From NCBI GenBank assembly GCA_046757525.1, contig JBHHYI010000008.1, positions 1 to 51,429 of the forward strand: DNA of 51,429 nucleotides, read 5' to 3'. The notes beneath the pieces were generated by a model that made no database searches, had not been told where the DNA came from, and saw only the letters and a program-made list of their open reading frames with translations. Each line of letters starts with the position of its first letter. The first letter of the stretch is position 1. The DNA is from a bacterium (GTDB lineage: Bacteria > Zhuqueibacterota > Zhuqueibacteria > Oceanimicrobiales > Oceanimicrobiaceae). Made by a program: the position numbers and the translations under genes. Positions 27,331 to 51,237 of the stretch are shown piece after piece.

Positions 27331-27344
27331 GACCCGAAAATGCC

Positions 27345-31532: not shown

Positions 31533-32608
31533 TGAAGGATTCTATGAAAGAGGCCTTGACTCCGGAAGAATTCGCTCATTGTCCGCTACCCATTGCCCGG
31601 CACGACACGATCCAGCTCAGCCACGGTAGTGGCGGCAAGATGATGAACGACCTCATCAGCAAGCTGTTTCTCTGGGCGTTTGATAACGAGAAGCTCCGCC
31701 GGCTGGACGATCAGGCGGTGCTGGACATCAACGGCCAGCGTGTGGCTTTCAGCACCGATTCCTTTGTGGTGGACCCCATTTTTTTCCCTGGTGGCGACAT
31801 CGGCGAACTCGCGGTCAACGGCACCATCAACGACGTCTGCATGAGTGGCGCGCGGCCGCTTTTCTTGAGTGCGGCTTTCATCATCGAAGAGGGGTTCCCG
31901 CTGGCTGACTTGAAGCGCATCGTAGAGTCGATGCAACGCGCGGCGCAGCGGGCCGGCGTGCTGGTGGTAACTGGCGACACCAAGGTGGTGAACAAAGGCA
32001 AAGGGGACAAAGTGTTTATTAACACCGCTGGCCTGGGCGTGCTGGAGCACGAACGGGAGATCAGCGCTGGCAATCTGCAACCGGGAGATAATCTCCTGAT
32101 CAACGGTTCCATTGCAGCTCACGGCATGGCCATTCTTTCGCGCCGCGAGGGGTTGGCGTTTCAGTCCCCTATTAAAAGCGACACCGCTGCTCTCAATGGC
32201 CTGGTTGCGGCCACCCTGAAAGCCGGTGGTGGTGGAGTGCACGCGATGCGCGATCCAACCCGCGGCGGTTTGGCAGCGACTCTCAATGAATTTGCCCTGG
32301 CTGCCCAGGTGGGCATCCGCGTCAGAGAGGATCGGATACCGGTCACAGCACCGGTGAGGGGCGCATGCGAAATCCTCGGCTTGGACCCCTTGTATGTGGC
32401 AAACGAAGGCAAGTTGGTGGTGGCTGTTGCTCAAGAGAAGGCTGAAGCCGTGCTAAGGGCCATGCAGGCGCACCCGCTCGGCCACGATGCGGCTATGATT
32501 GGCGATGTGGTTGCCGACCGGCCAGGCCTGGTGTCGCTGCAAACGCGCATTGGTGCCTGGCGTATTGTGGATATGCTGGTAGGAGAGCAGTTGCCGCGAA
32601 TCTGCTGA
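31532..32608 (+). CDS. hypE: Carbamoyl dehydratase HypE
   Basis: HGSGG, TDSFVVDP, GDTKVV, RDPTRGG, ANEG, C-terminal PRIC. Confidence 0.97.
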   Translation: MKDSMKEALTPEEFAHCPLPIARHDTIQLSHGSGGKMMNDLISKLFLWAFDNEKLRRLDDQAVLDINGQRVAFSTDSFVVDPIFFPGGDIGELAVNGTINDVCMSGARPLFLSAAFIIEEGFPLADLKRIVESMQRAAQRAGVLVVTGDTKVVNKGKGDKVFINTAGLGVLEHEREISAGNLQPGDNLLINGSIAAHGMAILSRREGLAFQSPIKSDTAALNGLVAATLKAGGGGVHAMRDPTRGGLAATLNEFALAAQVGIRVREDRIPVTAPVRGACEILGLDPLYVANEGKLVVAVAQEKAEAVLRAMQAHPLGHDAAMIGDVVADRPGLVSLQTRIGAWRIVDMLVGEQLPRIC

Positions 32609-32824
32609 GCATCGCAGGAGGGGTGGCCAAGACAAGTGAAGCGTGCGGTCATCGCATTCACCGGTGCAATGGTAGTGGCCTTGGGCGTTTAGTTACGGCT
32701 GGACCGCAGACCATCGTTTCTCATACCTACCTCTAATCTTCAGTTCTCGCTTGCATCTGAGTTCAGAATTTCTTATACAATAGGATGTTGTTTACATTTG
32801 AATGTTGCGGTTAACGCTGGATTC

Positions 32825-35209
32825 ATGAAGTTCAACATCGATAAAAGGCTCAGGCTCCAAATCCGGGGCAAGTTGGTCATTGCATTTGCGGGTTTTTCCA
32901 TTCTGCCGGTTTTGATTGTGGGGATTCTGGGAATTTCATGGAACGTGCAGACATTGCGTCGAGTGGCCATAGAGGATTTAAACCACGACTTGATTGCGAT
33001 CAAGGAGAGAATTGGGTCATTTTTGCAAAACACCGAAGAAAACATCGAATTACTCACGGCCACCTCTTCCTTTCAACGGTTTGTCAGCGCTGCAAAAGCC
33101 GGAGACGACGCCAGAGTGGCCAAAGCCCAGGCAGCCTTGTTGCCGGAGCTCTTGAGCTTCGCCCGACGCAAGGGAATCTTCTACCAAATTAAGTACATCG
33201 GTGCCGATGGCAACGAGCTTTTTGTGATCGAGCACGATGGGCAGGAGTATCACCCCTTGAATCCGAACCAGTTGAACGTTTCAGGGACGAGTTTTTACCT
33301 GTACCTTGCAAACAAAATGCCGCCCAACGCATTCACTTTTATTCCGGTTGAACTGATTGGCAGGGGTTCCAAAGCACTTCTTCCCGGTATTAGCTGCCTT
33401 TACCCGGTCTACTCGGGGAAGTTTTCCGGTCTTCTGGTGTTTCAGATCTACGCCCAGGCGTTTTTTAGAATCATGGAGCAAAAGACCCCACACACGCCCA
33501 CTGGCATTGTCATGCTGGTAAACTCCGAAGGCTATTACCTGTACCATTCAGAAAAAAAGAAGGCCTGGAATCGGCTTTTGGCGTCCAAAGACGTTTCGAA
33601 TCTCGAGGCAGATTATGGGGAAGAGGTCGCGGTGCGGTTGCTGGGGTCGTCATCCCCGTCCATACAAGAAGTCGGCGATGAACTGGTCGCACATGCTCCT
33701 CTATTTCCCGATTACCGGGGACTGGAAAACGATTACACCATCCTGAAGAGTGTCTCGAAAAAGGAAATATTCGCTCCTGCAAACACATTTAAGAAGCTTT
33801 TCTACGGGTTGTTGGGAATTTTTTTGTTGATTTCGCTGCTGTTCGCTTACCTCGGCACTCAGCAATTCACCGGACCTATCCAGAAGCTTCGACGAGAAGC
33901 AGAGGTCATTGCCCGCGGGGACTATCATTCCCGGGTCGACGTGGAAACCTACGATGAAATCGGGGAACTGGCTCGGCAATTCAACGTTATGGCTGAGTCG
34001 TTGGAGCAGCGGGAAACAGAGATTGCCCAGCACCAGCAGCATTTGGAACAGGTAGTCCGGCAACGCACCCGTGAATTGGAAAAGGAGAAGAACAAACTAC
34101 AAGTCATCCTGGACAACGTGCCCAGCGGTTTCATGCTGGTGGACAAAGACCTCAGGGTCATTTCAGCCAGCGCGGCCATCGAATCCATCATCGGCAAACC
34201 ACTGCGGGACATCCTCGGTCATTTTTGCTTTGAAGCCACCCGCTGCCACGAGAACGAAGACGACTGTCCCAGCCGATGCGTCTTTCAATCAGGCAGGCCA
34301 GAGTCTTATTTACTGCAGCGCCTTGGCCCGGAGGGCGAAGAGCAATATTTGGAACAGATAGCCATACCGTTGAAAAAGGATGGCAAGGTGGAGACCATCT
34401 TAGAAATTCTGACCGATGTTACCAAGCGTAAGAGGCTTCAGCAGCAATTAATTCGTTCAGAAAGGCTGGCTGCAACGGGTGAAATTGCAGCGGTGATCGC
34501 TCACGAGATGCGCAACTCCTTGACTTCTGTGCGCATGATCCTGCAGTTGTTGCGGGAGGCAGACCGGCTAATGCCTTCGGACACTGACTCTTTAAACGTG
34601 GCCCTGGACTCCATTGGTCGCATGGAAAACGTGGTCAAGGACCTTCTGCAACTGGCACGTCCGTCACCGCTGGAGAAACGCCCGGGTAACATCATTACCA
34701 TCCTCAAGGAAAGCATTGAATTCACGCGGCACCAAATTCTGCGCCAGGGCATTGAGTTGGAGGTGGATCTAACGCCGGATTTGCCAGAAGTTGAGTTGGA
34801 CCACCATCATTTGAAAGAAGCTGTGGTTAACTTGATTCTGAACGCTTCGCAAGCCATCGAAACCACTGGCAAGATTCACATTCGTTCCCGATTGACCACA
34901 TTATCCCAAAACCTACGTGATCTGGGTGAAGTCCGGATCGCTGAAGACGAAAAAGTAGGCGTGGGCGTTCAGGAAGTAGTGCTGAGGAAGGGCCAGCGCA
35001 CCATTAAAGTCGATATCATGGATTCAGGAATCGGGATGTCCGATGAAGAGATGCAACGAATCTTCAATCCTTTTTACACCACTAAACCTAAAGGAACTGG
35101 CCTGGGACTCTCTTTTGTGAAGAGAGTGGTAAATGCTCACGGTGGGCTGGTGAAGGTTGCGAGTCAGGTGGGCAAAGGCAGTCAGTTTTCGATCTTTATT
35201 CCAGCGTGA
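32825..35209 (+). CDS. Sensor histidine kinase (periplasmic Cache-like, HAMP, PAS, HisKA, HATPase)
   Basis: Two TM flanking a periplasmic domain, DEIGELA..FN.MA, Cys-containing PAS, AHEMRNSL, GTGLGL. Confidence 0.92.
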   Translation: MKFNIDKRLRLQIRGKLVIAFAGFSILPVLIVGILGISWNVQTLRRVAIEDLNHDLIAIKERIGSFLQNTEENIELLTATSSFQRFVSAAKAGDDARVAKAQAALLPELLSFARRKGIFYQIKYIGADGNELFVIEHDGQEYHPLNPNQLNVSGTSFYLYLANKMPPNAFTFIPVELIGRGSKALLPGISCLYPVYSGKFSGLLVFQIYAQAFFRIMEQKTPHTPTGIVMLVNSEGYYLYHSEKKKAWNRLLASKDVSNLEADYGEEVAVRLLGSSSPSIQEVGDELVAHAPLFPDYRGLENDYTILKSVSKKEIFAPANTFKKLFYGLLGIFLLISLLFAYLGTQQFTGPIQKLRREAEVIARGDYHSRVDVETYDEIGELARQFNVMAESLEQRETEIAQHQQHLEQVVRQRTRELEKEKNKLQVILDNVPSGFMLVDKDLRVISASAAIESIIGKPLRDILGHFCFEATRCHENEDDCPSRCVFQSGRPESYLLQRLGPEGEEQYLEQIAIPLKKDGKVETILEILTDVTKRKRLQQQLIRSERLAATGEIAAVIAHEMRNSLTSVRMILQLLREADRLMPSDTDSLNVALDSIGRMENVVKDLLQLARPSPLEKRPGNIITILKESIEFTRHQILRQGIELEVDLTPDLPEVELDHHHLKEAVVNLILNASQAIETTGKIHIRSRLTTLSQNLRDLGEVRIAEDEKVGVGVQEVVLRKGQRTIKVDIMDSGIGMSDEEMQRIFNPFYTTKPKGTGLGLSFVKRVVNAHGGLVKVASQVGKGSQFSIFIPA

Positions 35210-36612
35210 AGAAAATGAGCAAGACAAAAATCTTGATCGCTGACGATGATAAGAATATTCGCTTCGCCTTCCGCAAGACCTTCGAGCAAGACGGTTTTGT
35301 GGTCCTGTTAGCAGGCGACGGTAACGAGGCCCTGGACAAAGTGGCCACTGAGAAACCGACGCTGGTTTTCTTAGACATCACCATGCCCGTGAAATCGGGA
35401 CTCGAGGTTTTGCAGGAAATGAGGGAGAAGGGATTGAACATCCCGGTGGTGGTCATCACCGGATATGGTACCATGCAAACGGCGGTCAAGGCTGTGCAAC
35501 TGGGGGCCTACGAATATCTCACCAAACCGCTGGACGTGGACAAGGTACGCGTGGTGGCCCGCCGAGTTTTGGAGATGGTCAGGCTCCGAAAAGAAGTTGA
35601 AGACCTGAAGGCACAGCTTCATCGTCCCGTGCGGGAATTTGAGCTCATTGGTAACGACCCACAAATGCAAGAAGTTTACAAGAAGATTGGGTCCGTCACC
35701 ACTACGCCTAACGCCACCAATGTCCTGATCGTTGGGGAGAGTGGCACAGGCAAAGAATTGGTTGCCAGGGCCATTCACAACAGCGGCACCTTTTCCCGTG
35801 AACCCTTTGTGGCCATCAATTGTACGGTTTTGCCGGAAACCTTGTTGGAAAGTGAACTGTTTGGCCATGAGAAGGGGGCTTTCACCGGCGCCGACAAACG
35901 CAAGTTGGGTAAATTCGAAGTCGCCAAGCAGGGAACGATCTATCTGGATGAAATCGGCGATATGTCGCCAAAACTGCAACAAAAATTGCTACGAGTCTTG
36001 CAGGAACGCGTTTTCGAACGGCTCGGGGGCAATGAACCCATTGAAGTGAAAGCCCGATTTATCGCTTCTACCAACAGAGATTTAGAGAGGGAGATCCGAT
36101 TGGGCTGTTTCAGGGAAGACCTGTTTTTCAGATTGAACGTCATCAACATCGAACTGCCGCCGTTGCGGGTTCGTCGCGCGGATATTCCTGTTTTGGCCAA
36201 TCATTTTCTGGTTAAGTACAACCGGCGACTGCACAAAGATCTAAAAGGGATCTCCCAGGAAGCGATGGCCTTGCTGAATCGCTATCCTTTCCCGGGTAAT
36301 GTGAGGGAGCTGGAGAATGCCATCGAGCACAGCGTTGCCCTTGAAAAAGGCGAAGTGCTTCTGCCTGAGTCGTTGCCGCCGCAGCTCAGGACTCAACCAA
36401 ATGACCAGGTCCTGGACATTCCCGTTACCAGCCCCATTTTGCACGAAGCCAGAAAAGCCGTGGTTGAGGCATTCGAAAAGAAGTTTCTGGTAGAACGATT
36501 GCGTTGCCACAGAGGCAATGTCACCGCCGCAGCAAAAGAAGCACAAATACAGCGCCAGAGCTTCCAGCGGTTGATGAAGAAGTACGACATCGATTCCAGC
36601 GAGTTCCGCTAA
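35206..36612 (+). CDS. sigma54-dependent response regulator (NtrC family) no. 3
   Basis: REC, GESGTGKE, GAFTGA, GNVREL, HTH; GTGA overlap with the kinase. Confidence 0.95.
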   Translation: MKKMSKTKILIADDDKNIRFAFRKTFEQDGFVVLLAGDGNEALDKVATEKPTLVFLDITMPVKSGLEVLQEMREKGLNIPVVVITGYGTMQTAVKAVQLGAYEYLTKPLDVDKVRVVARRVLEMVRLRKEVEDLKAQLHRPVREFELIGNDPQMQEVYKKIGSVTTTPNATNVLIVGESGTGKELVARAIHNSGTFSREPFVAINCTVLPETLLESELFGHEKGAFTGADKRKLGKFEVAKQGTIYLDEIGDMSPKLQQKLLRVLQERVFERLGGNEPIEVKARFIASTNRDLEREIRLGCFREDLFFRLNVINIELPPLRVRRADIPVLANHFLVKYNRRLHKDLKGISQEAMALLNRYPFPGNVRELENAIEHSVALEKGEVLLPESLPPQLRTQPNDQVLDIPVTSPILHEARKAVVEAFEKKFLVERLRCHRGNVTAAAKEAQIQRQSFQRLMKKYDIDSSEFR

Positions 36613-36656: not shown

Positions 36657-36697
36657 TGCCACCTAACGGGTGGCACCCTGTCACCGATGCGGTGACA
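36657..36697. promoter_or_regulatory. Tandem palindromic upstream activator sites
   Basis: TGCCACC-N5-GGTGGCA (36657-36675) and TGTCACC-N5-GGTGACA (36679-36697), 22 bp apart, ~100 bp upstream of a -24/-12 site. Confidence 0.75.
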
Positions 36698-36792
36698 TTT
36701 CAGGACTGTTCGAGCCATACAGTTTGGCGGTGAATGATTCTAATCCTATTAAAAACAAAGGTTAGTACCACAGATGCGATTTCGATTTTTCA

Positions 36793-36808
36793 TGGCACGT
36801 TGTTTGTC
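36793..36808 (+). promoter_or_regulatory. sigma54 promoter of the cyc2-like operon
   Basis: TGGCAC-GTTGT-TTGTC; AT-rich IHF-like tract at ~36741-36765 between it and the palindromes. Confidence 0.65.
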
Positions 36809-36873
36809 TCCTGGCACAGCACAGAGACAAGAAATCCTTTTAATTTACAACAAACAAATGAGGAGAAATTGCC

Positions 36874-38127
36874 ATGAAGAAGTCCATTCTATGGAGCACT
36901 GGTCTGGCGTTTGTTTTCGTGATCACAATTATTTCAGTTAAGGAGGCTCGGGCCATTCCGGTGTTTGCGCGCAAGTATAAAACCAGTTGCGCCACCTGCC
37001 ATTACGCCTACCCGAAGCTCAACGGGTTTGGCAAGGCCTTCAAAAACAATGGCTACCGTTACCCGGGCGGCGATGAAAACTACCGCAAGGAAGAACCGGT
37101 AAGCATGGGATCTGAAAGCTACAAGAAGGTATGGCCCGATGCCATTTGGCCTTCCGACATCCCAGGTTTCTTGCCAATCGCCATTCAGCCGGTGGGGCGG
37201 ATTAACTACAAACCCGATGGTGCGGTTAAATCGGAGTTTGAATTTCCCCATGAAGTGGAGGTGCTTTACGGCGGCACGTTAGGGGAACACGCTTCCTTCA
37301 TTGGGGAAATTGAAATCGAAAATGAAGACAACGAGCCAGAATTTGCTTTTCCTTTCACCTTTCAATGGGATTTCAATCCCAAGTGGCACATTCAGGCAGG
37401 CACGGTGAAACCAGACCCGACGCCAGAACATCATCGCCTCACACGAAATCACTACAATGTCGCCAGTTTCCGCAGCCGCAGCCGATGGCGTTTTCGGGAT
37501 CAACATACCGGACTTGAACTCTGGGGTACCAACAACGGTCCCAATGGACGCGGCGGCTACCGCTTTCAAGTCGGGATTGACAACGGACAGGGCATCAGCG
37601 ATGCTAACAGCAGCAAAGACGTTTACGCCATCTTTAAATACAAGATTGGCGGCCTGGGCCAAATTGGCGGCACCGAAGGCGGAGCAAGTCAAAGCTCGGC
37701 ATTTTATGAGGACAACAATTTTACGCTTGGTGGTTATGTTTACCACGGCACTGCCTCAGATGCTGCCGGCGTCAAAGAAAATTTTACTGTGGGTGGCGGT
37801 ACCGTGGATTGGTGGTACAATCGTTTTATATTGAATAGTACCTTCATGTACATGCACTCGGAACTGCCGAATACACCCAACCGGAATTCAGTGGTGTGGT
37901 ACGCTCAAAGCAACTACGTCATCTATCCGTGGCTTATCGGGCTGGTTAGATTTGAATATACGGACAAAGACGTTGACGACACCCTGGACGCAGAGTCGTT
38001 TCTGATTCCGGCCGTCACTGTGGTCCTCCGCGCCAATGTTCGCTTAACCTTCGAGTATTTTCGTCCTTTAGATGATGTCAACAAAAACAACGACTTGTTT
38101 GACATACAAGTTCAATTTGGAATCTAA
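36874..38127 (+). CDS. cyc2: Cyc2-like fused monoheme cytochrome c / outer-membrane porin
   Basis: Signal peptide ending ARA, then IPVFARKY..SCATCH..YPKLNGFGKAFK.NGY (Cyc2 N-terminal signature), followed by a ~350 aa beta-strand-rich region ending QVQFGI. Confidence 0.75.
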   Translation: MKKSILWSTGLAFVFVITIISVKEARAIPVFARKYKTSCATCHYAYPKLNGFGKAFKNNGYRYPGGDENYRKEEPVSMGSESYKKVWPDAIWPSDIPGFLPIAIQPVGRINYKPDGAVKSEFEFPHEVEVLYGGTLGEHASFIGEIEIENEDNEPEFAFPFTFQWDFNPKWHIQAGTVKPDPTPEHHRLTRNHYNVASFRSRSRWRFRDQHTGLELWGTNNGPNGRGGYRFQVGIDNGQGISDANSSKDVYAIFKYKIGGLGQIGGTEGGASQSSAFYEDNNFTLGGYVYHGTASDAAGVKENFTVGGGTVDWWYNRFILNSTFMYMHSELPNTPNRNSVVWYAQSNYVIYPWLIGLVRFEYTDKDVDDTLDAESFLIPAVTVVLRANVRLTFEYFRPLDDVNKNNDLFDIQVQFGI

Positions 38128-38160
38128 ACCCATGAAAGTCTGTGCAAAAGGAGTTAACTC

Positions 38161-38769
38161 ATGAAAGCACTAAAATCTAAATCAACCTGGTACATCGTCT
38201 TAGCCTCGGTCCTCATTTGGTGCGGCAACAGCGCTGTAGCCGGCACCATCAAAGGCAAGATCAAGGTGAGAGGGGCTCGTGATGCCAGAGACGTGGTGGT
38301 CTATATCGACAAAGCGCCAGGCGAGTTCAAGCCACCGAAAGAACATCCAGTCATGGACCAGAAAAACCTGACATTTATTCCGCACGTGCTGCCTGTTTTG
38401 GCGGGTACCACTGTGGACTACAAGAATGATGACGACGTCCTGCACAATGTGTTTACGCCGGATAAATGCGCTGAAAAGTTTAATCTGGGTACCTGGCCGA
38501 AAGGAGAAGTCCGTTCCTATACTTACAAAAAACCGGGCTGTGTGGCAGTTATGCTGTGCAACGTGCATCCGGAAATGGAAGCCTGGGTCGTGGTGCTACA
38601 AAATCCTTACTTCTTCAAAACCGACAAAGACGGGGTCTTTACCATAGAAAACGTACCCACCGGAAAATACACCTTGAAAGTGTGGCACCAGAAACTCAAG
38701 GGCAAACCTCAGGAAATCGAAGTCCCGAAAGAAGGGGAGATTACGGTCGACTTCTCCATGAAAAGATAA
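38161..38769 (+). CDS. Periplasmic cupredoxin-domain protein with C-terminal beta-sandwich
   Basis: Signal peptide; HNVF and CNVHPEM (type 1 Cu His/Cys/His/Met); DG.FTIENVP.GKYTLKVWH. Confidence 0.8.
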   Translation: MKALKSKSTWYIVLASVLIWCGNSAVAGTIKGKIKVRGARDARDVVVYIDKAPGEFKPPKEHPVMDQKNLTFIPHVLPVLAGTTVDYKNDDDVLHNVFTPDKCAEKFNLGTWPKGEVRSYTYKKPGCVAVMLCNVHPEMEAWVVVLQNPYFFKTDKDGVFTIENVPTGKYTLKVWHQKLKGKPQEIEVPKEGEITVDFSMKR

Positions 38770-38776
38770 AGCCCAA

Positions 38777-38881
38777 AAGCTGACCTTCCGCTGCAGAATT
38801 CTGCTTTGGCGTATGTGATTAGGGAAATAGCTGGTGTGGATCAAGGGAAAGATGATTTAGCCCTTTCAGGAAGGTCAGCTT
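38777..38881. repeat. 13-bp perfect inverted repeat enclosing a structured 79-nt intergenic segment
   Basis: AAGCTGACCTTCC ... GGAAGGTCAGCTT; inner GCAGAATTCTGC and AAGGG..CCCTT. Confidence 0.7.
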
Positions 38882-38918
38882 CTCATTTTCCCATTAATTA
38901 AAAAGAAGGAGACATGAA

Positions 38919-39725
38919 ATGATCAAGAGAATGGTCATCTCCTTAGGGTTGGCGATCTTCTGCTTCTTTTTCCTCTTTGGGCAAAGTACATTTGCCCAGG
39001 TGTCAAAGAAGGGCTATCGTTCCATTGAGCTGCTGCATAAAGGCCACATTCGGGGCAAGGTGCGTTATACCGGACCTGCAATGGAGCTGCCAGAGATCGA
39101 AATAACGAAGGATCCGAACGTCTGCGGTTCCCAACCACGCAAGCTCAAAGCCATCGACATCAGCGGCGACGGTGCGCTGAGAAATGCCGTTGTTTACATT
39201 GCTGACATCACGAGAGGGAAGCCCTTCAGCCCGGTGGCCGGGCCGCCTGTGCTGGAGCAAAAGGGGTGTGCCTACTACCCACATGTTCAAGTAGTACCAG
39301 GACGTTCTACCCTGAAGATTGTCAACGAGGATAAGCTCTGGCATAACGTGCACGCTTATCTTTTTCCTTATGATACCCAATTCGTGCTCTATCCAAGCAG
39401 TCTACCCGGCGGAGGCAGGACTTTATTCAATGCGGCTATGCTGAAGTTCGTAAAAAAGATTTTCCGGGATTTGCCTGAGAAAGGAATTGTTAAATTCATG
39501 TGTGATGCCGGCCACACCTGGATGACTGCCTACATAGTCCTTGCCGAACACCCGTACTTCGCAAAAGTGGACCAGGACGGTCGTTTTGAGCTCAAGGACG
39601 TCCCGGTGGGTACCTATGAATTGGCTGTGTGGCACGAATACTTCGGCACCAAGACCAAAGACATTGAAATCTTCGATAACACGTATACGAGGGTTGATTT
39701 TGTGTACAAGCAAGGTAGCGAGTAA
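38919..39725 (+). CDS. Second periplasmic cupredoxin-like protein
   Basis: Signal peptide; HNVH and CDAGHTWM; same C-terminal DG.F.L.DVP.G.Y.L.VWH. Confidence 0.75.
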   Translation: MIKRMVISLGLAIFCFFFLFGQSTFAQVSKKGYRSIELLHKGHIRGKVRYTGPAMELPEIEITKDPNVCGSQPRKLKAIDISGDGALRNAVVYIADITRGKPFSPVAGPPVLEQKGCAYYPHVQVVPGRSTLKIVNEDKLWHNVHAYLFPYDTQFVLYPSSLPGGGRTLFNAAMLKFVKKIFRDLPEKGIVKFMCDAGHTWMTAYIVLAEHPYFAKVDQDGRFELKDVPVGTYELAVWHEYFGTKTKDIEIFDNTYTRVDFVYKQGSE

Positions 39726-41590
39726 TGACGACACAACCCGTCAACGCCGAGTGGCTCAAGAAGAACTTCCCCTGCTACTGGGCCTGTCCAGTGCACACGG
39801 AGGCTGGACGATATGTGAATCTGATTGCTCAAGGACGGTTTGAGGAGGCTTACCGGGTTGCCAGGGCGCCCAATCCCTTTGCCTCCATTTGCGGAAGGAT
39901 TTGCGCGGCGCCATGTGAAACCGCCTGCCGCCGGGGTGAGTTGGACAAGCCCATCTCTATTCGCGCGTTGAAACGCTTTGTCTGCGAACGCTATGGCGTC
40001 GAGAGCATGATCGACATCACCAGGATTTATGAAGCGCTGGGACCCAGAATCAAGCCAAAGAACAAGTGGGTGGCAGTCATCGGCGCGGGACCGGGCGGCA
40101 TGTCCTGTGCTCACGATCTTGCGCTTCTGGGATACAAGGTCACCGTGTTCGAAAAGCAAGCTATCCCGGGTGGCATGCTGACGCTGGGTGTGCCAGAGTA
40201 TCGATTGCCGCGGGAGCTGGTACGCATGGAAATCAATGCCATTCTCAGCCTCGGTGTGGAGCTCAAACTGGGGAAAGCGCTGGGCCGCGACTTTACCTTG
40301 CAGGACTTGAAAGACAATGGCTACGAAGCCATTTTTCTGGCAATCGGTGCACACAAGAGTCGCGACCTGCAAATAGAAGGGGTCGGGCTCGACGGCGTTC
40401 TGCGGGCTGTGGATTTTCTCCTGAACATCAACATGGGCTACAAAGCCGATTTGGGTGAAAAGATCGTGGTCATCGGCGGAGGCAACGTAGCCATCGACGT
40501 GGCGCGCACAGCAGCACGGCAGGAGCGAATCGAAGAGGTGGCTTCTGACATCACCGCGGCGTTGGACGTGGCCCGGTCTGCTGTGCGGTTTGGAGCCAAA
40601 GAAGTGCACATGGTGGTCTTGGAGTCGCGCGAAGAGATGCCGGCTTCCGAGGAAGAAATTGACGAGGCCCTGGAGGAACGCATTCACATTCACAACTCTT
40701 TAGGGCCTAACCGAATACTGGGCGCAAACGGCCAGGTCACGGGACTGGAGACGGTCAGATGTGTCTCGGTGTTTGATGAGAACGGCCGCTTCAATCCGAA
40801 ATTTGCCCCGGGAACTGAAGAAGTCATAGAGGCAGATTCCATCATCATGGCCACCGGTCAGACTTCCGATCTGTCGTTCTTGCGACCGGAAGACGGCGTC
40901 GAGGTGACGCCACGCAACACCATAAAAGTCGAACGAGGCACATTAGCGACCACCGCACCGGGCATCTATGCAGGAGGTGATGTCAGCTTCGGCCCACGGA
41001 TCGCCATCGATGCCGTCGCAGACGGCAGACGTGCTGCCCGCTCCATCGACGAATATCTTACTGGAAGAAAACAGGAGGAGAAAAGAGTCTCGATCACGAA
41101 GTACGACTCCTTTGAGTACGAACAACAACCCGAGTTTGAAAAAGTAGATCGCGTTCCAATCCCGACTCTGCCAATCGACCGAAGGGTTGGCGTGGCACAG
41201 GTAGAATTAGGATATTCTGAAGCAGAGGCGGTCCTGGAAGCCAAACGCTGTTTGCGCTGCTGGATTAACACGGTGTTTGAGGGACGGGAGGCCACGGGTT
41301 CCGAATGCATTCTCTGTGGGGGTTGTGCCGACATTTGTCCCGAGAACTGCATCGAGCTGGTCTCTTTGCGGCGCCTGGTTTCCGACCCAGAAGCCATGCG
41401 CGCGTTAGAACAGTCAGAAGATTTCTTGTTAGGCCGCGGCCAAACGAGCAGCGGTGAAGCCTTCGAAGGCGCCGTCATGTTGAAGGATGAAACCATTTGC
41501 ATTCGCTGCGGGCTTTGTGCGAAACGTTGTCCCGTCCAGTGCATTTCAATGCAAGGATTTGAAATTGAGGAAAGAGTGGCTTATGAGTAA
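39725..41590 (+). CDS. Cytoplasmic FAD/[4Fe-4S] NAD(P)H oxidoreductase (GltD/NfnB/DsrL-like) with C-terminal 2x[4Fe-4S] ferredoxin
   Basis: CYWACP, CGRIC..PCE.AC, GAGPGG, GGGNVAID, GGD, RCLRC, CILCGGCADICP, CIRCGLCAKRCP; no signal peptide. Confidence 0.9.
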   Translation: MTTQPVNAEWLKKNFPCYWACPVHTEAGRYVNLIAQGRFEEAYRVARAPNPFASICGRICAAPCETACRRGELDKPISIRALKRFVCERYGVESMIDITRIYEALGPRIKPKNKWVAVIGAGPGGMSCAHDLALLGYKVTVFEKQAIPGGMLTLGVPEYRLPRELVRMEINAILSLGVELKLGKALGRDFTLQDLKDNGYEAIFLAIGAHKSRDLQIEGVGLDGVLRAVDFLLNINMGYKADLGEKIVVIGGGNVAIDVARTAARQERIEEVASDITAALDVARSAVRFGAKEVHMVVLESREEMPASEEEIDEALEERIHIHNSLGPNRILGANGQVTGLETVRCVSVFDENGRFNPKFAPGTEEVIEADSIIMATGQTSDLSFLRPEDGVEVTPRNTIKVERGTLATTAPGIYAGGDVSFGPRIAIDAVADGRRAARSIDEYLTGRKQEEKRVSITKYDSFEYEQQPEFEKVDRVPIPTLPIDRRVGVAQVELGYSEAEAVLEAKRCLRCWINTVFEGREATGSECILCGGCADICPENCIELVSLRRLVSDPEAMRALEQSEDFLLGRGQTSSGEAFEGAVMLKDETICIRCGLCAKRCPVQCISMQGFEIEERVAYE

Positions 41591-42077
41591 GAACAAAAAG
41601 GACGACAAGTCGGGCCCGAGCAAACGGGTCACGCGACGAGAATTCTTAAACACTCTGGGTACCGGTGCGCTGGTTGTCAGCGGATTGGGGGCGGCGGGCG
41701 TGACCTGGGATTATCTTTCCCCAAATGTGTTGTTCGAGCCACCGTTGAGGTTTAGAGTTGGCAAGCCAGAAGATTACACGCCAGGTACGGTGACTTTAAA
41801 TGCAGAAAGGAAGGTTTTCGTCGTGCGGGATGCGCAGGGTTTCTTTTATTGCCTGACTGCGGTGTGCACCCACTTGGGTTGCCTGACCTTCTGGAAAGGC
41901 GATGAGAACCGTATTGCTTGTCCCTGTCACGGCAGCCGCTTCTCGCGACACGGGGATGTGATTCGCGGACCTGCACCAAGAGCCTTGCCGCACTTTCGCA
42001 TCAAGCTGGACGATCGAGGGGAGTTGATTGTCGACAAAAACGAAATCGTTAGCGAAGATTACATCTTGAAGGTGTGA
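41583..42077 (+). CDS. qcrA: Rieske [2Fe-2S] subunit of a Rieske/cytochrome b complex
   Basis: Tat signal TRREFL plus TM, CTHLGC, CPCHGS, GPAPRAL; start ATG 41583. Confidence 0.93.
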
Positions 42078-42841
42078 ATGTCATGGCAAACCACATTAAG
42101 AACTTATTCGTTCAATCCAAGGCCTGGAAATCGATTTTCAGAACCGGTGTCCCAAGGTCCAACCTGGACCGGTCGTATTTGATATTCAACAATCTATTCT
42201 TACACATTTTTCCGGTTAAGGTCAAGCGAACTTCCCTGGCTTTCAAAGCAACATATTTCCTGGGGGTTACCGCTTTTGCCTTGTTTGTCATCCTCGTGGT
42301 CACGGGAATTTACTTGATGCTCTATTACCACCCCTCGATCCCGCAGGCTTACCAAGACATGAAGGATTTGGAGTTTGTCGTGTCCAGTGGCCGCTTCATT
42401 CGCAATATGCACCGTTGGGCAGCCCACGGCATGGTCGCAGTGGTTTTTCTCCATCTCTTGCGGGTTTTCTACGCTGGAGCTTACCGGCCTCCCAAACAGT
42501 TTAACTGGGTCGTTGGCGTGGTGTTGTTTCTACTAACCTTGTTGCTTAGTTACACCGGCTACTTGCTGCCATGGGATCAGTTGGCCTTGTGGGGCATATC
42601 GGTAGGTACGAACATGCTGGGCTACGCGCCTTTGATCGGAAAAAAGTTCAGGTTTCTACTTCTGGGAGGAAACATTGTTTCCGAAAACGCCTTGCTGCGA
42701 TTCTACGTTCTCCATGTTCTGGTCTTACCTTTGTTTATGACGATTCTAATTGGCATCCATTTCTGGCGGGTGCGAAAAGACGGCGGAATCACACCTTTGG
42801 CCAAAAGCGAGACGGAAGTGCACAAAAAAGAAGGTCGATAA
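42074..42841 (+). CDS. qcrB: Cytochrome b, N-terminal b6-like half
   Basis: [27 protein letters not shown]14-H. Confidence 0.93.
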
Positions 42842-42844
42842 ACC

Positions 42845-43549
42845 ATGAATCAAAACCCGGATTTTAAACTCGAAGAAATCGTTGAGCCTGCAAAAGTGCC
42901 AAAGCGGGTAGCATTCATAAAAAAGGACACCAGCGCCCTGGTTAAGGAGACGGAAGAAGACTTGGTGATGAGTTACCCGGATCTCCTGCTGCGGCTGCTC
43001 ATCGGTTTTGAGATTCTGTTAATTGTTTTAGCGATCATTTCTCTTTTACTTAATGCGCCGTTGGAAGAGCTGGCCAATCCTCAACATACGCCCAATCCGG
43101 CGAAGGCGCCCTGGTATTTTCTCGGTCTCCAGGAAATGTTGCACCTGTTTCCACCACTGGTGGCAGGGGTGCTGATTCCCACTCTTGTGGTCATTGCCCT
43201 CATCGTGATTCCTTACTTTGAGATCAACCTCAAGCGCGAGGGGCTTTGGCGCGAGAATCAACGGACTACCCTGACCTGGCTGACTGCCATCACCCTGGTC
43301 ATGATTGTGGTGCTGTCGTTTTTCGAGGCTTTTGCGATCATCATTCCGACGGCTGTCCTCTATGCCTTCATGATCTTGCCCTATGTCACTGGGAAAGAAA
43401 CGGGTTTTATAGGCAGGTTAGGCCGTCTTTCCCTGGCAGAGTGGATCATGACCTGGTTCGTTCTGGTCGCCACTATCTTGACAATCATTGGAACCTTATT
43501 TCGCGGTCCGGGCTGGGAATGGACCTGGCCCTGGCAAGGAATCTATTAA
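42845..43549 (+). CDS. Cytochrome b subunit IV-like half
   Basis: ANP..TPNPAKAPWYFLGLQE (PEWY-equivalent), LTIIGT.FRGPGW. Confidence 0.88.
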   Translation: MNQNPDFKLEEIVEPAKVPKRVAFIKKDTSALVKETEEDLVMSYPDLLLRLLIGFEILLIVLAIISLLLNAPLEELANPQHTPNPAKAPWYFLGLQEMLHLFPPLVAGVLIPTLVVIALIVIPYFEINLKREGLWRENQRTTLTWLTAITLVMIVVLSFFEAFAIIIPTAVLYAFMILPYVTGKETGFIGRLGRLSLAEWIMTWFVLVATILTIIGTLFRGPGWEWTWPWQGIY

Positions 43550-43560
43550 ACGCAAATGGA

Positions 43561-45525
43561 ATGACGATGGAGACAGGCGAATTAAACAAATGGTACGGAA
43601 TTGCGAGTCTGGTTTTCTTAGTGGTGCTGGCAATCTCACCTGCCAAAGACTACTTCAGGCAGTGGCGGCACTATCAGAAAGAATACAACAAACTGTTGTT
43701 GGCCCAACCCAAACGGAAGAAACCCGTGCCCATTGGCATTAAGCAGATTTGGAATAAGAAATTGGATCGGGTAGACCGCTGTACCTCCTGCCACCTGGGC
43801 GTTGAGGAAAGGGATTTGGTTGGAGCTAAGCAGCCGTACACGCCGCATCCGCGCGTCTACCACGATTTGAATGAGTTCGGGTGTACGATTTGTCACGACG
43901 GGCAAGGGCTTGCAACGAGCAAAGAAAAGGCCCACGACGGGCGGCCTTATTGGGAGGAACCGTTGTTGCCGCGAGAATACCTGGAAGCCTCTTGCGGAAA
44001 ATGCCACAAAGAAGAAGTTGTGCCCCGAGCACCCGTGCTGACTTTGGGTCGAACGCTGATCAAAAAATATAATTGCGCGGGCTGCCACAGAATTGGAGAG
44101 GTAACCAAAGAATACGCTCCCCGCCTGGACGGCATCGGTGACAAAACGAATCGAAGCTGGTTGGTGCGCTGGCTAAAAGATCCCAAGGCTTTTCGACCGG
44201 AAACCAGGATGCCCGACTTTAAACTCAGTGACGAAGAGGCAAATCTTCTGGCTGATTTTCTTATGACCTTCAAAAGCTACCCCAACGGGAAAAAGCTCAG
44301 CACGGTACCGGCTGAGTTGCAGCAAGAATATCCTCCCGACGATTGGGTTGATGCCGGAAAAGCTAAGTTCAGGCAAGCACGTTGCATTAGTTGCCACTTG
44401 GTGGAAGGCAAAGGTGGGCCGCTGGCACCGGATTTAGCGAAAATAGCAAGCAAGGCCCGGCCAGCCTGGTTGGTTGCTTATCTACTGGACCCAAAAGGAT
44501 TTCAGCCCGAAGTGAAGATGCCTCAGTACGGGTTTACACGAGAAGAAGCCCAGAGGGTCACGGCCTACATGAAGAGCGAATTCGTGGACTGGGATGCCCC
44601 GGAGGACACCACCGAACACATCCCGGAAGCGAACTTTTATGAAAAGGGACTCAAGCTGTTCAACCAGTACAATTGCGGCGGTTGCCACCAGCTAACCGGC
44701 ATTCCAAAGGTGGAAAACATGGGTCCGGATCTCTCCGACATTGGAGACCGGCATCTGTACCAATTGGAGTTCGGCAGTACGGACATTCCCCGTACTCTGC
44801 CTAATTACATTTATAACAAATTGGCCAATCCGCGCCAGTTTGTGCAGACGGCGAGAATGCCGCAGTTCAATTTCAGTGAAGAACAATTACAGGCCATTAC
44901 CACCGCGTTGCTGGCTGTTACCCAGGAAAAGTTGCCATCGCAGTTCACGGTTCAACCAGAGCCTCAAAGCCCCTTCGACCCGCAGGGCGACTTTGGGCGT
45001 ATTGTTGACAAGTATTCTTGCTTTTCCTGCCATGTCATCAATGGTCGCGGATTTCGCCTGGCGACGGACCTGACGAAAGAAGGGAGTCAAACCCAGAGGG
45101 ACTGGCTGAAGCAATATTTTAGGATACCCTACTCCATGCGTCCCATTCTTACCGAACGCATGCCTAATCTGTTCATGCCCGAGAAGGACATCACAACTGT
45201 GGTGGACTATTTCAACCTGGCGCTGCGTGATGATGAAATTGACTCGGTGGCGATTCCCTTAAACGACGCCCGGTTGGTCGACAGAGGTCGTGACCTGTTT
45301 TTCGAAAAATATGGTTGTCAAGCCTGCCATCAGGTGCAAGGTAAGGGGGGGTACGTGGGACCGTTGCTGGACCGCACCGGAGATCGACTCACGGCAGGCT
45401 GGGTTTATCGCTGGATCAAGAATCCCCAAGAGTACAAAGCCGATACCATCGATCCCACTTCCGGCATGTCCGACGACGAGGCCCGTGCGGTCACCGCTTA
45501 CTTAATGAGTTTGAAGGGAGAATGA
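43561..45525 (+). CDS. Membrane-anchored octaheme cytochrome c
   Basis: CTSCH, CTICH, CGKCH, CAGCH, CISCH, CGGCH, CFSCH, CQACH; N-terminal TM; start 43561 or 43567. Confidence 0.9.
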   Translation: MTMETGELNKWYGIASLVFLVVLAISPAKDYFRQWRHYQKEYNKLLLAQPKRKKPVPIGIKQIWNKKLDRVDRCTSCHLGVEERDLVGAKQPYTPHPRVYHDLNEFGCTICHDGQGLATSKEKAHDGRPYWEEPLLPREYLEASCGKCHKEEVVPRAPVLTLGRTLIKKYNCAGCHRIGEVTKEYAPRLDGIGDKTNRSWLVRWLKDPKAFRPETRMPDFKLSDEEANLLADFLMTFKSYPNGKKLSTVPAELQQEYPPDDWVDAGKAKFRQARCISCHLVEGKGGPLAPDLAKIASKARPAWLVAYLLDPKGFQPEVKMPQYGFTREEAQRVTAYMKSEFVDWDAPEDTTEHIPEANFYEKGLKLFNQYNCGGCHQLTGIPKVENMGPDLSDIGDRHLYQLEFGSTDIPRTLPNYIYNKLANPRQFVQTARMPQFNFSEEQLQAITTALLAVTQEKLPSQFTVQPEPQSPFDPQGDFGRIVDKYSCFSCHVINGRGFRLATDLTKEGSQTQRDWLKQYFRIPYSMRPILTERMPNLFMPEKDITTVVDYFNLALRDDEIDSVAIPLNDARLVDRGRDLFFEKYGCQACHQVQGKGGYVGPLLDRTGDRLTAGWVYRWIKNPQEYKADTIDPTSGMSDDEARAVTAYLMSLKGE

Positions 45526-45531
45526 AAAACC

Positions 45532-45981
45532 ATGCCAAAGCTCTGGAATTTAGCACTATTTACTTCTTTAACCCTCGCTTTATCCTGTGGTGGAAAGGAG
45601 GCATTGGTTTCGGGCAAGAATGCACCGGTGGACACTGTGACCGTGGCGCAAGAAGAAGTTCAAACCAAGGAGGTTACTCCGTTGTTGGACTTGACTTACG
45701 CCGAACGTAAAGGCAAACGCCTGTACGACAAGTATTGTGCCATCTGTCATGGCAGTAAGGGCGAAGGGGACGGATTTAATGCCTACAATTTGAATCCGCG
45801 TCCAAAAGATTTTACTCAGGAGGGGTACTTTTCCGGCATAACCGACGCCTGGCTCTTCGAGGTCATTAGCCAGGGAGGGCGCGGTGTGAAGCGCTCCATT
45901 CTGATGCCTTCCTACGAGAACACGTTGAGCAGGCAGCAAATCGAAGATATCGTAGCCTACGTTAGATTTCTTGCGAAGTAG
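45532..45981 (+). CDS. Lipoprotein monoheme cytochrome c
   Basis: Lipobox LALS-C, CAICH, GEGDG..LNPRPKDFT, LMPSY. Confidence 0.88.
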   Translation: MPKLWNLALFTSLTLALSCGGKEALVSGKNAPVDTVTVAQEEVQTKEVTPLLDLTYAERKGKRLYDKYCAICHGSKGEGDGFNAYNLNPRPKDFTQEGYFSGITDAWLFEVISQGGRGVKRSILMPSYENTLSRQQIEDIVAYVRFLAK

Positions 45982-46396: not shown

Positions 46397-46412
46397 TGGC
46401 ACGCAGATTGAA
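46397..46412 (+). promoter_or_regulatory. Putative sigma54 promoter
   Basis: TGGCAC-GCAGA-TTGAA, 34 nt upstream of ATG 46447. Confidence 0.55.
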
Positions 46413-49312: not shown

Positions 49313-49436
49313 TACAAACAGAGCCACGAAAATTTGCAACAAATTTCAGGCAAACGGAAAATCCCTTAATTCCTAACGTCTCGTGCGCATCCACAGACCG
49401 TATGTAAACAGTCATCATACAACAAGGAGAATTATT

Positions 49437-50279
49437 ATGGGAGCATTTGGTGATCTTAACCGGATCGGCACTAACATCCAGGCCTTGCAATCCCTGAATT
49501 CGCTCAACAAGATCAACAATCAGCTTGGCGTTCGCCAGTTGCGTTTGGCTACTGGCAAGCGAATCAACAGTGCTGAGGATGATGCGGCTGGCTTTGTCAT
49601 CGGCCGAAACTTGCAAGCGAGGTCGAAGGGTCTTGCGACGGCATTGAACAATGTTGGGGATGCCAAGTCTTTATTGTCCATTGCAGAAGGTGGCTTGAAC
49701 AACATCCTGGATATTTTGGAGACCATGAAGGAGAAGGCAACCCAGGCAGCCAGCGATACCCTTGGCAGTAGTGAACGAAATGCCATCGAAGACGAATTGG
49801 ACGCGTTAGCGGCGGAAATCGATGATATCGTGACCGAAACCACTTTCAACGGTGCGAGCTTGCTGACCTCCGTCAACAAGACCATCCAGACCGGTGCAGA
49901 GACTACCGACACTCTGGTGATTTCTGTTACCAGTCAAAGTCACACGGCGGGTGCCTTAACCGTGGACGACGCCAACATCACCGTGAGCTCGTCCTCTTTT
50001 GCCTCCGATGCCTTGAGCAAAATCAACACCGCCATTACCACCGTGAAGAACAGCATCGCTTCAATCGGCTCCTATCAGTCGCGACTGACGACCAAAGAAT
50101 CAACTTTGTCGACGGCTATAACCAACACGGAGGCCTCGCGTAGTCGGATCGTTGATGCTGACTTTGCCAAAGAGCAGCTCGAGTCGCTGAAACTGCAGAT
50201 ATTGCAACAAACGGCTTCGGCTTCGTTGACGCAGGCAAATGCTGCCCCGCAGGTAGTGTTGTCTCTATTCGGCGGTTAG
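49437..50279 (+). CDS. fliC: Flagellin, copy 1
   Basis: RLATGKRINSAEDDAAG, SRIVDADFA.E, QAN..PQ.VLSL; start ATG 49437 (SD AAGGAG). Confidence 0.97.
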   Translation: MGAFGDLNRIGTNIQALQSLNSLNKINNQLGVRQLRLATGKRINSAEDDAAGFVIGRNLQARSKGLATALNNVGDAKSLLSIAEGGLNNILDILETMKEKATQAASDTLGSSERNAIEDELDALAAEIDDIVTETTFNGASLLTSVNKTIQTGAETTDTLVISVTSQSHTAGALTVDDANITVSSSSFASDALSKINTAITTVKNSIASIGSYQSRLTTKESTLSTAITNTEASRSRIVDADFAKEQLESLKLQILQQTASASLTQANAAPQVVLSLFGG

Positions 50280-50397
50280 ACCAAGAGTACATTCCGCAAT
50301 TCTAATTAACCGGTAAAGACCGGAGAGCAAGGGAGGTGCTTTCTCAAATGTCAAGTGAGTACCACTACAATATCAAAGAACATTAAGGAGAACTATT

Positions 50398-51237
50398 ATG
50401 GGAGCATTTGGTGATCTTAGTCGAATCGGCACTAACATCCAGGCCTTGCAATCGTTGAATTCGCTCAACAAGATCAACAACCAGCTTGGCATTCGCCAGT
50501 TGCGTTTGGCGACTGGCAAGCGAATCAACAGTGCTGAGGACGACGCAGCGGGCTTTGTAATTGGCAGAAACTTGCAGGCGAGGTCCAAAGGTCTTGCGAC
50601 AGCATTGAACAATGTTGGGGATGCCAAGTCTTTGTTGTCCATTGCAGAAGGCGGCTTGAACAACATACTCGATATCTTGGAGACGATGAAAGAGAAAACA
50701 ACCCAGGCCGCCAGCGACACCCTTGGCACTTCAGAGCGGAATGCCATCGAGGATGAACTGGATGCCCTGGGCGATGAAATTGATGACATCGTCAGTGAAA
50801 CCACCTTCAACGGGATTTCCCTCTTGAGTGGCGTGACGAAAAGCTTTCAAACCGGGGCTGAAACAACCGACACCCTGACCGTAACCGTAACTTCCGCTAA
50901 CCACGACTCCGCTGCGCTGGGCGTTGCCGACGCAAGCATCCAGGTGGACTCTGCGGCGAACGCTTCCACCGCGCTCAGTCGGGTAAATTCGGCCATTACC
51001 ACGGTAAAAAACAGCATTGCTTCGATTGGCTCTTATCAGGCACGACTGGCAACCAAAGAATCCACTTTGTCCACAGCCATCACCAACACCGATGCCTCGC
51101 GAAGTCGGATTCTGGATGCCGATTTCGCCAAAGAGCAGCTCGAGTCCCTGAAACTGCAAATATTGCAGCAAACGGCCTCGGCGTCTTTAACCCAAGCAAA
51201 CGCGGCTCCGCAGATTGTGCTTTCGCTATTCCGTTAA
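50398..51237 (+). CDS. fliC: Flagellin, copy 2
   Basis: Same D0/D1 motifs; termini near-identical to copy 1. Confidence 0.97.
   Translation: MGAFGDLSRIGTNIQALQSLNSLNKINNQLGIRQLRLATGKRINSAEDDAAGFVIGRNLQARSKGLATALNNVGDAKSLLSIAEGGLNNILDILETMKEKTTQAASDTLGTSERNAIEDELDALGDEIDDIVSETTFNGISLLSGVTKSFQTGAETTDTLTVTVTSANHDSAALGVADASIQVDSAANASTALSRVNSAITTVKNSIASIGSYQARLATKESTLSTAITNTDASRSRILDADFAKEQLESLKLQILQQTASASLTQANAAPQIVLSLFR

Follow-up and report, generated by a model that had tools for sequence, protein, structure and literature searches.

A conserved gene cluster that joins a Cyc2-type haem-porin and cupredoxin to an anammox-type Rieske/cytochrome b module

Cyc2 of Acidithiobacillus ferrooxidans, Cyc2 PV-1 of Mariprofundus and Cyt572 of Leptospirillum share a sequence signature, a single haem and a porin barrel. 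Cyc2 is used as a marker of iron oxidation, and genes of this kind have led to Ignavibacteriales and Zixibacteria being counted as iron oxidisers (PMC8478452). The Rieske/cytochrome b complexes of the anammox bacterium Kuenenia are treated in PMC12954380, which favours bifurcation to NAD(P)+ and names N-side quinone reduction as the larger problem; neither 'Cyc2' nor 'outer membrane' occurs in its text. Here we describe a bacterial DNA stretch of 51,429 nucleotides (GenBank assembly GCA_046757525.1, contig JBHHYI010000008.1, positions 1 to 51,429; the window) in which a protein with the Cyc2 signature, single haem and porin barrel is encoded in one run of genes with a Rieske/cytochrome b module of the anammox type. 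An earlier note on this DNA had described nine co-oriented genes with overlapping stop and start codons, and the open reading frames bear this out: nine frames span 36874-45981 on the + strand, with overlaps at 39725, 41583-41590 and 42074-42077 and remaining gaps of 33, 149, 3, 11 and 6 nucleotides. They are:

36874 to 38127, + strand: Cyc2-type monohaem cytochrome fused to a beta-barrel porin, 417 amino acids (motif, model and fold search)
38161 to 38769, + strand: cupredoxin 1, a type-1 copper domain inserted in a CarboxypepD_reg-like beta-sandwich
38919 to 39725, + strand: cupredoxin 2, of the same architecture and about 30% identical to cupredoxin 1
39725 to 41590, + strand: GltD/NfnB/DsrL-like flavo-iron-sulfur (FeS) oxidoreductase without signal or membrane segment
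41583 to 42077, + strand: Rieske [2Fe-2S] protein with a twin-arginine-type leader (Ser118, Phe120)
42074 (GTG; or ATG at 42083) to 42841, + strand: split (b6-type) cytochrome b with four haem-b His
42845 to 43549, + strand: subunit IV, extended, with APWY replacing PEWY
43561 to 45525, + strand: membrane-anchored octahaem cytochrome c, a three-haem N-terminal part plus five class I domains
45532 to 45981, + strand: lipoprotein monohaem class I cytochrome c (lipobox-like signal, one haem motif)

We found that this arrangement recurs in other genomes. A genome-collection scan with a 43-row Cyc2 alignment gave 79 loci, from the best 80 of 576 confirmed stretches, and the full order Cyc2-cupredoxin-flavoprotein-Rieske-cytochrome b-subunit IV-octahaem-lipoprotein is present in 27 of the 47 loci with at least 7 kb of downstream DNA. 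Among the other 20, four are complete except for the lipoprotein within the fetched DNA, one falls below the cupredoxin threshold, three are without the flavoprotein and 12 are otherwise arranged. By submitter label the carriers belong to about nine phyla (Ignavibacteriota, Bacteroidota, Calditrichota, Zixibacteria, Glassbacteria, Gemmatimonadota, Fidelibacterota, Acidobacteriota and Deferrimicrobium), some of these labels looking wrong on the Cyc2 tree. The reverse test started from the octahaem cytochrome in metagenome contigs (best 80 of 582, maps read by eye). Twenty loci have 7.5 kb or more of upstream DNA, one of them (L123) apparently a duplicate of L069, and 17 of the 20 contain a Cyc2-type gene; 16 of these genes lie upstream, one of them on the opposite strand, and one lies downstream. 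The synteny that the earlier note had proposed as a check was thus found from both ends. In eight octahaem-anchored loci, Cyc2 matches that of the window in the N-terminal part only, at 23-32%; unlike Cyc2 types are therefore kept at one position, so that it is Cyc2 as such that is retained. The octahaem cytochrome occurs in 18 of 167 genomes of the window's phylum. In L059 (4599-12077) and L193, a paralogous cassette of flavoprotein, Rieske protein, fused cytochrome b and penta/hexahaem cytochrome stands 5' of Cyc2, in reverse order, which is probably an independent joining of the two halves.

The joined unit is real and conserved, and apparently undescribed as a unit, as the earlier note had supposed. 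Older papers on multiple Rieske/cytochrome b complexes and Cyc2 trees deposited on figshare may bear on its novelty. No description was found in the open literature, supplements and most subscription journals lying outside the coverage, and none in the accessible portions of PMC10732223, PMC5317091, PMC10654088, PMC7399161, PMC8478452, PMC11683472, PMC13741234, PMC7029218 and bioRxiv 2022.05.06.490989.

The identification of the first gene rests on several features. In its product, the AxPxFAR[Q/K][T/Y] signature, published in PMC8406198, is followed by a single CxxCH and a downstream PxL, and a signal peptide, a length above 365 amino acids (417) and a C-terminal porin, 16-stranded in the definition of Cyc2, were found as well. 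The protein has 846 homologues and no Pfam or NCBIfam match; its structure model is a beta-barrel (predicted local distance difference test, pLDDT, 76.5) whose best fold matches are general porins. With one haem motif in this protein, eight in the large cytochrome and one in the lipoprotein, both the Cyc2-like porin-cytochrome and the octahaem cytochrome of the earlier note hold up. Elsewhere in the host genome (G000), C67:1367-3951 (L200) encodes a second Cyc2-like haem-porin, of a distant type, with a cupredoxin behind it; a kinase and a sigma54 regulator of its own lie upstream, and it has no quinone module.

A cupredoxin gene lies within 700 nucleotides of cyc2 in 70 of the 74 loci with enough DNA. 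The type-1 His/Cys/His/Met ligand set is complete in both cupredoxins of the window, and in the alignment of cupredoxin 1 (window included) H95 is present in 71/73 rows and C133, H136 and M139 in 73/73. Rusticyanin is a single-domain cupredoxin with a long C-x4-H-x4-M loop; the window proteins have C-x2-H-x2-M and C-x3-H-x2-M loops plus an extra beta-sandwich domain, and rusticyanin was not among the 12 solved matches of the cupredoxin, all matches to solved cupredoxin domains being weak. In place of rusticyanin, we therefore see cupredoxin-plus-beta-sandwich proteins, of which this genome encodes ten. A pair of cupredoxins is not part of the design either: no second cupredoxin match precedes the flavoprotein in any of 43 loci with a flavoprotein downstream, and a close orthologue of cupredoxin 2 (75%) stands directly 5' of the flavoprotein in one relative (G064:C313). 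Thus, cupredoxin 1 is the conserved Cyc2 partner gene and cupredoxin 2 is a lineage-specific extra. A complex prediction for Cyc2 with cupredoxin 1 scored 0.17 against a mark of 0.32, and Atlas searches named no function.

To the downstream side of cyc2 and the cupredoxin gene, the quinone-facing module differs between loci. Flavoprotein and Rieske/cytochrome b follow in 34 of the 79 loci, Rieske/cytochrome b without flavoprotein in six, the flavoprotein only in six (five of these ended by the contig end), a module like Qrc or alternative complex III (ACIII) in ten, and a CuA-NapH-like module in six, three of them ahead of a Rieske module; 17 loci, mostly short, show no module. In L110, Qrc-like and Rieske modules stand in tandem after one Cyc2. 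On a 29-row Cyc2 tree, the eight Qrc-type rows with an intact Cyc2 frame require six changes and a single clade is rejected (approximately unbiased test, p-AU 7.8e-8); these are quick trees, the 29 rows were picked after a 60-row tree and the Qrc group was set beforehand by gene content. The Qrc-like module has been gained or lost repeatedly, repeated loss from a tandem ancestor giving the same pattern. Because three unrelated quinone-facing modules occupy one slot, the constant element is the link from Cyc2 and cupredoxin to a quinone-facing enzyme.

The Qrc/ACIII-like form consists of a four-gene module with tetrahaem, octahaem and lipoprotein cytochromes (L033:7369-16227, L009, L046 and L110), and a similar module without Cyc2 is found in the host's own genome (G000 C1:165325-171963). 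Aligned with ArrA, its large subunit has no Cys at what we take to be the Mo-ligand position, and its four subunits score under the Qrc cut-offs. The other replacement comprises a CuA-like protein, a NapH-like polyferredoxin and a CuA-plus-dihaem protein behind Cyc2 and cupredoxin (L001:8705-12056, L002, L003, L045, L072 and L079; no NosZ was seen there), and presumably recalls the accessory genes of clade II nos clusters. We had considered the 317-amino-acid dihaem gene inserted in some loci as a peroxidase and rejected this, since it is a CuA-like plus dihaem protein. The window has a 13-bp perfect inverted repeat, unique in the genome, in the 149-nucleotide gap between the two cupredoxin genes (38777-38881); it folds no better than shuffles (z -1.04) and sits where relatives have the CuA-NapH block, and is possibly a deletion scar or a stabilising stem.

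The flavoprotein has 16 Cys that are invariant in 37/37 rows, window included. At the position of the YRR motif of NADP(H) enzymes it has V/C/S-L-E, with Glu300 in 37/37 rows and in 29/29 of an independent set. Since YRR, the phosphate-binding motif whose rule was measured on DsrL (PMC7596348), is replaced, the enzyme is predicted to be specific for NAD(H) and not NADP(H); of the NAD(P)H flavoprotein in the earlier note, the oxidoreductase stands and the NADP part is not supported.

In the membrane complex, the closest solved Rieske proteins are Kuste4569 (E 3e-26) and Kustd1480 (1e-20) of Kuenenia, and a split cytochrome b, multihaem cytochrome c and flavoprotein are found there likewise, so that the comparison with anammox genomes made in the earlier note is upheld. 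Ser and Phe of the Rieske protein are conserved (45/46 and 44/46; 49/51 and 48/51 in a second set) and are the pair of the high-potential Kustd1480 protein, measured at +335 mV (PMC12954380). In cytochrome b, the N-terminal His41 is present in 42/42 rows and in 52/56 of a second set (the other four being gaps), and the C-terminal Arg-Lys pair is conserved too; by position, not by alignment with Kuenenia, they match the predicted interface-haem site of the Kuenenia complexes. A Cys at the haem cN position, which we assume from the b6 motif, is found in 0/42 rows and 1/56 of the second set. In the octahaem cytochrome, haems 4-7 are His/Met with invariant methionines. At haem 8 the distal residue is Glu in 38, Cys in seven, Gln in three and Met in two of 54 proteins, Met is found in 0/38 of another set, and Asp is also among the replacements. 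The Cys at haem 8 (7/54; L050, L189 and other acidobacterial-type loci) suggests His/Cys ligation and a very low potential. A fold search gave no solved whole-protein match for the octahaem cytochrome at E 0.001.

Gene content, gene order, conservation, cofactor ligands and module swapping are direct observations, and a conduit from cell surface to quinone is the most economical reading of them. As to the protein contacts, bifurcation, direction and acceptor, we infer the following, which is our first choice but a tentative one: the complex would split menaquinol electrons between NAD+ and a high-potential outside acceptor reached via Cyc2, running mainly outward. Menaquinol would be oxidised at the Qp site of the anammox-type Rieske/cytochrome b complex. 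The high-potential electron would pass from the Rieske protein through the octahaem cytochrome, lipoprotein cytochrome and cupredoxin to Cyc2 and on to a dissolved outside acceptor, such as a ligand-bound Fe(III) or Mn(III/IV) species, and might also reach periplasmic oxidases; the low-potential electron would move from bP to bN, the interface haem on His41, and the FeS chain and FAD of the flavoprotein to NAD+, and the NADH formed could be recycled by complex I. The complex would then be a quinol-bifurcating branch point and no straight wire. At the Qp site both electrons leave or both join the quinol, and therefore NAD+ reduction would pair with export and uptake with NADH use; with haem cN lost, the competing N-side quinone reduction would go. 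Cyc2 has been proposed as a terminal Fe(III) reductase in A. ferrooxidans (PMC8790237).

The host genome is 5.09 Mb in size and 97% complete; its relatives carry mixed submitter labels, and the lineage may, at a guess, be an FCB one of the KSB1/JdFR-76 kind. MenB is over its cut-off, which makes the host a menaquinone user, and the futalosine marker MqnC was not found; a NuoF-like gene and oxidase genes of the aa3 and cbb3 types are present. Molybdopterin-family proteins number at least nine, Rieske and cytochrome b genes at least seven each, and 31 frames have at least three and up to 20 haem motifs. RuBisCO and acetyl-CoA synthase were not found in this genome, and we did not accept an ATP citrate lyase from a weak citrate-binding match (28 bits). 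Across 33 carrier genomes, one RuBisCO-like fragment and one acetyl-CoA synthase were found; with carbon-fixation markers nearly absent in carriers, the Acidithiobacillus-type rationale of the earlier note is weakened. The scarcity of carbon-fixation markers in host and carriers, a paralogous cassette beside iodate-reductase-like genes (described below) and the 95% complete genome G007, which has Cyc2 with the Qrc-like form and in which no haem-copper oxidase, bd oxidase or NapA was found, all speak for this outward reading, as do the conserved gene order, the Kustd1480-like Rieske residues, the match to the interface-haem site and the menaquinone of the host.

Several points weigh against it. 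The strongest is that biochemically tested Cyc2 proteins are all Fe(II) oxidases, of a monohaem design argued to suit dissolved Fe2+ (PMC8406198), and that nearly all carriers have an oxidase as sink: a haem-copper oxidase-family gene, the sink that Fe(II) uptake needs, is present in 32/33 carriers, and a cbb3-type oxidase lies within the window. The paralogous cassette probably adjoins a periplasmic Nxr/Nar-like enzyme as well, able to run either way. A blue-copper carrier limits export to high-potential acceptors, estimated at about +0.35 V or more, and so not ferrihydrite, and Qrc in sulfate reducers carries electrons from the periplasm to menaquinone. Flavoprotein-less loci and paralogues likewise show His41, the Arg-Lys pair and the missing Cys, which are thus not diagnostic, and we dropped His41 and the missing cN Cys as marks of flavoprotein-bearing complexes. 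Carrier genomes are incomplete metagenome-assembled genomes, and the search that gave a strong citrate-lyase match in 0/33 of them was run without a positive control. Finally, Cyc2 was not found in 3/20 of the octahaem-anchored loci, nor in G027 and G023, which have the inner module. The system may well run both ways.

The alternative that survives best is mixotrophic Fe(II) uptake, which we consider possible though doubtful: Cyc2 would oxidise dissolved Fe(II), and the cupredoxin and lipoprotein cytochrome would feed mainly cbb3/aa3 oxidases or periplasmic reductases, the Rieske/cytochrome b or Qrc-like module sharing the periplasmic chain or running backwards with NADH giving the low-potential electron, whereby electrons from Fe(II) would reach the menaquinone pool. 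Some soil loci carry an RQTG-type Cyc2, a type that we take to be typical of validated clusters 1 and 2. The NapH-like module would presumably oxidise quinol in its normal direction, which argues the other way. The carrier oxidases, the aa3- and cbb3-type genes of the host and the validated Cyc2 oxidases (+208 mV for the neutrophilic one; PMC8406198) fit Fe(II) uptake, and bc1 and ACIII figure in reverse transport models for Zetaproteobacteria (PMC7029218). G087, with the full operon, has quinol-fed sinks only (bd oxidase and NapA-like genes; no haem-copper oxidase was found there). Within the window's phylum, 93/167 genomes have a haem-copper oxidase-family gene, and six octahaem carriers are without one. 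Against uptake, reverse transport is little needed without carbon fixation, no oxygen or nitrate sink was found in G007, and NADH spent on menaquinone bypasses complex I, a related refill route being called an enormous loss in PMC12954380.

We regard a non-iron outside partner as unlikely. The porin would admit or sense a soluble high-potential substrate (an oxyanion, peroxide, nitric oxide or Mn species) whose turnover would take place in the periplasm, perhaps at the haem 8 that is nearly always without Met in the octahaem cytochrome (Met in 2/54 and 0/38); the fold search, however, gave no catalytic match for this protein, and a Glu, Asp or Cys ligand may just tune the potential. The inner module also occurs without Cyc2, and related cassettes lie beside iodate-reductase-like and Nxr-like genes. 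In the host genome, C33:17608-29287 (L198) encodes a porin, a cupredoxin, two dihaem peroxidase-like proteins, AioB/IdrB-like and AioA/IdrA-like proteins, a cupredoxin, a lipoprotein, a flavoprotein and a Rieske protein. The paralogous cassette of cupredoxin, flavoprotein and Rieske protein thus stands behind the dihaem peroxidase-like and Aio-like pairs, and it is the arrangement of these two pairs that defines iodate reductase (idrABP1P2) clusters in PMC8692401. The end of C33 overlaps the start of C27 by 55 nucleotides, and C27:14-10874 (L199) encodes a fused cytochrome b/IV, a pentahaem cytochrome and periplasmic NxrC/A/B-like (Nxr/Nar-like) proteins; the two contigs likely join, which would give a candidate iodate-reductase plus Nxr super-cluster on a Rieske cassette. 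A Geobacter cluster of porin and Rieske/cytochrome b affects selenite/tellurite and not Fe(III) reduction (PMC5877670), and function in Cyc2 cluster 3 is called most uncertain (PMC8406198). In contrast, the finding of unrelated Cyc2 types at the same position points to a redox role of the haem-porin itself. Least probable is the path of the earlier note, in which extracellular electrons are driven uphill to reduce NAD(P)+, or those of NAD(P)H pass straight outside: all compartments are covered, the unit is conserved and uphill flow has a precedent in A. ferrooxidans (PMC8790237, PMC13741234), but by Q-cycle logic such uptake would be no single-turnover reaction of the complex, Qp-site chemistry as set out in PMC12954380 would tie NAD+ reduction to outward Rieske-side flow, carriers are without carbon-fixation markers, the flavoprotein is without the NADP(H) motif, and the scheme could operate only if forward and reverse turnovers took turns, powered by proton-motive force.

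The control region of the operon lies directly upstream, and its features, with one beyond the last gene, are:

32798 to 35209, + strand: sensor histidine kinase (dCache, HAMP, PAS, HisKA and HATPase by Pfam), start codon approximate
35206 to 36612, + strand: sigma54-dependent response regulator (receiver, AAA+ and helix-turn-helix by Pfam)
36657 to 36697, no strand: two tandem palindromes TGYCAC-N7-GTGRCA, at 36657 and 36679
36793 to 36807, + strand: sigma54-type -24/-12 promoter, perfect -24 and imperfect -12
46397 to 46411, + strand: further sigma54-type site, 5' of the regulator gene that comes next

A -24/-12 site, upstream activator-type sites and an adjacent enhancer-binding protein, the features of sigma54 control, are all present. 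A sensor histidine kinase gene is also found upstream of the operon in relatives, and a sigma54 regulator gene lies within 1.5 kb 5' of cyc2 in 45 of the 64 loci with enough upstream DNA; the dCache kinase is likely the cognate sensor and the response regulator at 35206-36612 likely the activator of the operon. The palindrome pattern matches the 5.09 Mb genome twice, both times ahead of cyc2, and a looser pattern, set after the window had been inspected, is found 5' of cyc2 in 8/72 loci as compared to 1.4% of random windows; the tandem palindromes probably bind the activator. A relaxed -24/-12 motif, likewise chosen after looking at sequences, is found no more than 200 nucleotides from the start codon's position in 11 of the 24 loci whose regulator gene stands directly upstream (0.6% of random control windows), and the strict sigma54 pattern in 5/75 loci, so that enrichment holds for the relaxed pattern only. 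Of the one operon behind a single sigma54 promoter in the earlier note, the sigma54-type site at 36793 is seen, and the single promoter and co-transcription of the nine genes are what the layout predicts; the site at 46397-46411 probably marks the operon end. A sigma70 and terminator scan gave chance level only, and an Rfam scan of 31000-51429 gave no match.

Other genes of the window lie around this region. At 12951-18718, 20 kb upstream, divergent genes of a cbb3-type oxidase (213 bits on COX1) occur with those for a multihaem cytochrome and a heavy-metal ATPase; at 980-3945 there is another copper ATPase gene, accompanied by that of a CsoR/RicR-like repressor. Genes for hydrogenase maturation (protease, hypF, hypC, hypD, hypE; 26908-32608) stand directly 5' of the sensor kinase and are not there in the maps of relatives, and two tandem, nearly identical flagellin genes lie at 49383-51237.

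If this widespread operon runs outward, the Cyc2-based iron-oxidiser calls for Ignavibacteriales and Zixibacteria need revising. More hesitantly than for the window alone, we can extend menaquinol splitting to carriers at large: in many non-autotrophic bacteria of groundwater, sediment and soil, Cyc2 would be the terminal reductase of a bifurcating complex III without an N-side quinone step, menaquinol would yield NADH and its partner electron would go to a high-potential metal, the quinone-facing module being a plug-in repeatedly replaced by Qrc/ACIII-like or CuA-NapH-like units. The Rieske/cytochrome b design of anammox bacteria, in which the making of NAD(P)H is unproven, is placed in many other hosts and in a simpler form, without haem cN and predicted to be NAD-specific, and the natural variants without flavoprotein (6/79 loci) are built-in controls. 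Whichever way it runs, the operon would be a first defined path linking Cyc2 with the pools of quinone and NAD in bacteria other than the classical iron oxidisers.

Among described systems, Kuste4569-4574 and Kustd1480-1485 of Kuenenia share with the window operon a split b6-type cytochrome b, an extended subunit IV, an NAD(P) oxidoreductase subunit and a hexa/octahaem cytochrome c in place of cytochrome f. The Kuenenia complexes are modelled with haem cN, whereas the window family is without its Cys, and unlike them the window operon has no HAO-like subunit and is joined to Cyc2, cupredoxin and lipoprotein cytochrome under a sigma54 system. With the Cyc2-rusticyanin-bc1 chain of Acidithiobacillus it shares a neighbouring blue-copper protein and a bc-type complex in the chain; in contrast, the copper protein of the window has two domains and a short C-x2-H-x2-M loop, the bc complex is of menaquinone/b6 type, encoded in the same operon with its own flavoprotein, and hosts of this type are mostly without carbon fixation. 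The Geobacter extHIJKLMNOPQS cluster shares a porin, a Rieske protein, split cytochrome b and c-type cytochromes (PMC5877670). ExtP, ExtQ and ExtS are best or near-best NCBIfam matches, ExtP with 264 bits (cut-off 290) and ExtQ with 56 (150), and the window operon does not show the set that marks an Ext cluster, namely ExtP and ExtQ over their cut-offs with ExtH, ExtKL, ExtM and ExtN; ExtI is porin-like and no haem-porin, and the ext genes listed in that paper include no cupredoxin or NAD flavoprotein. QrcABCD/ACIII takes the same slot in 10/79 loci and is absent from the window operon. With DsrL, NfnB and GltD, the flavoprotein shares an N-terminal FeS domain, FAD and NAD(P) Rossmann domains and a C-terminal 2[4Fe-4S] domain; it differs in having no dsr or glt context and in scoring below all curated cut-offs, and has V/C/S-L-E for YRR like the NAD(H)-using DsrL-1 (PMC7596348). 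Each half of the unit is known, and the joined unit is apparently a new assembly of known kinds.

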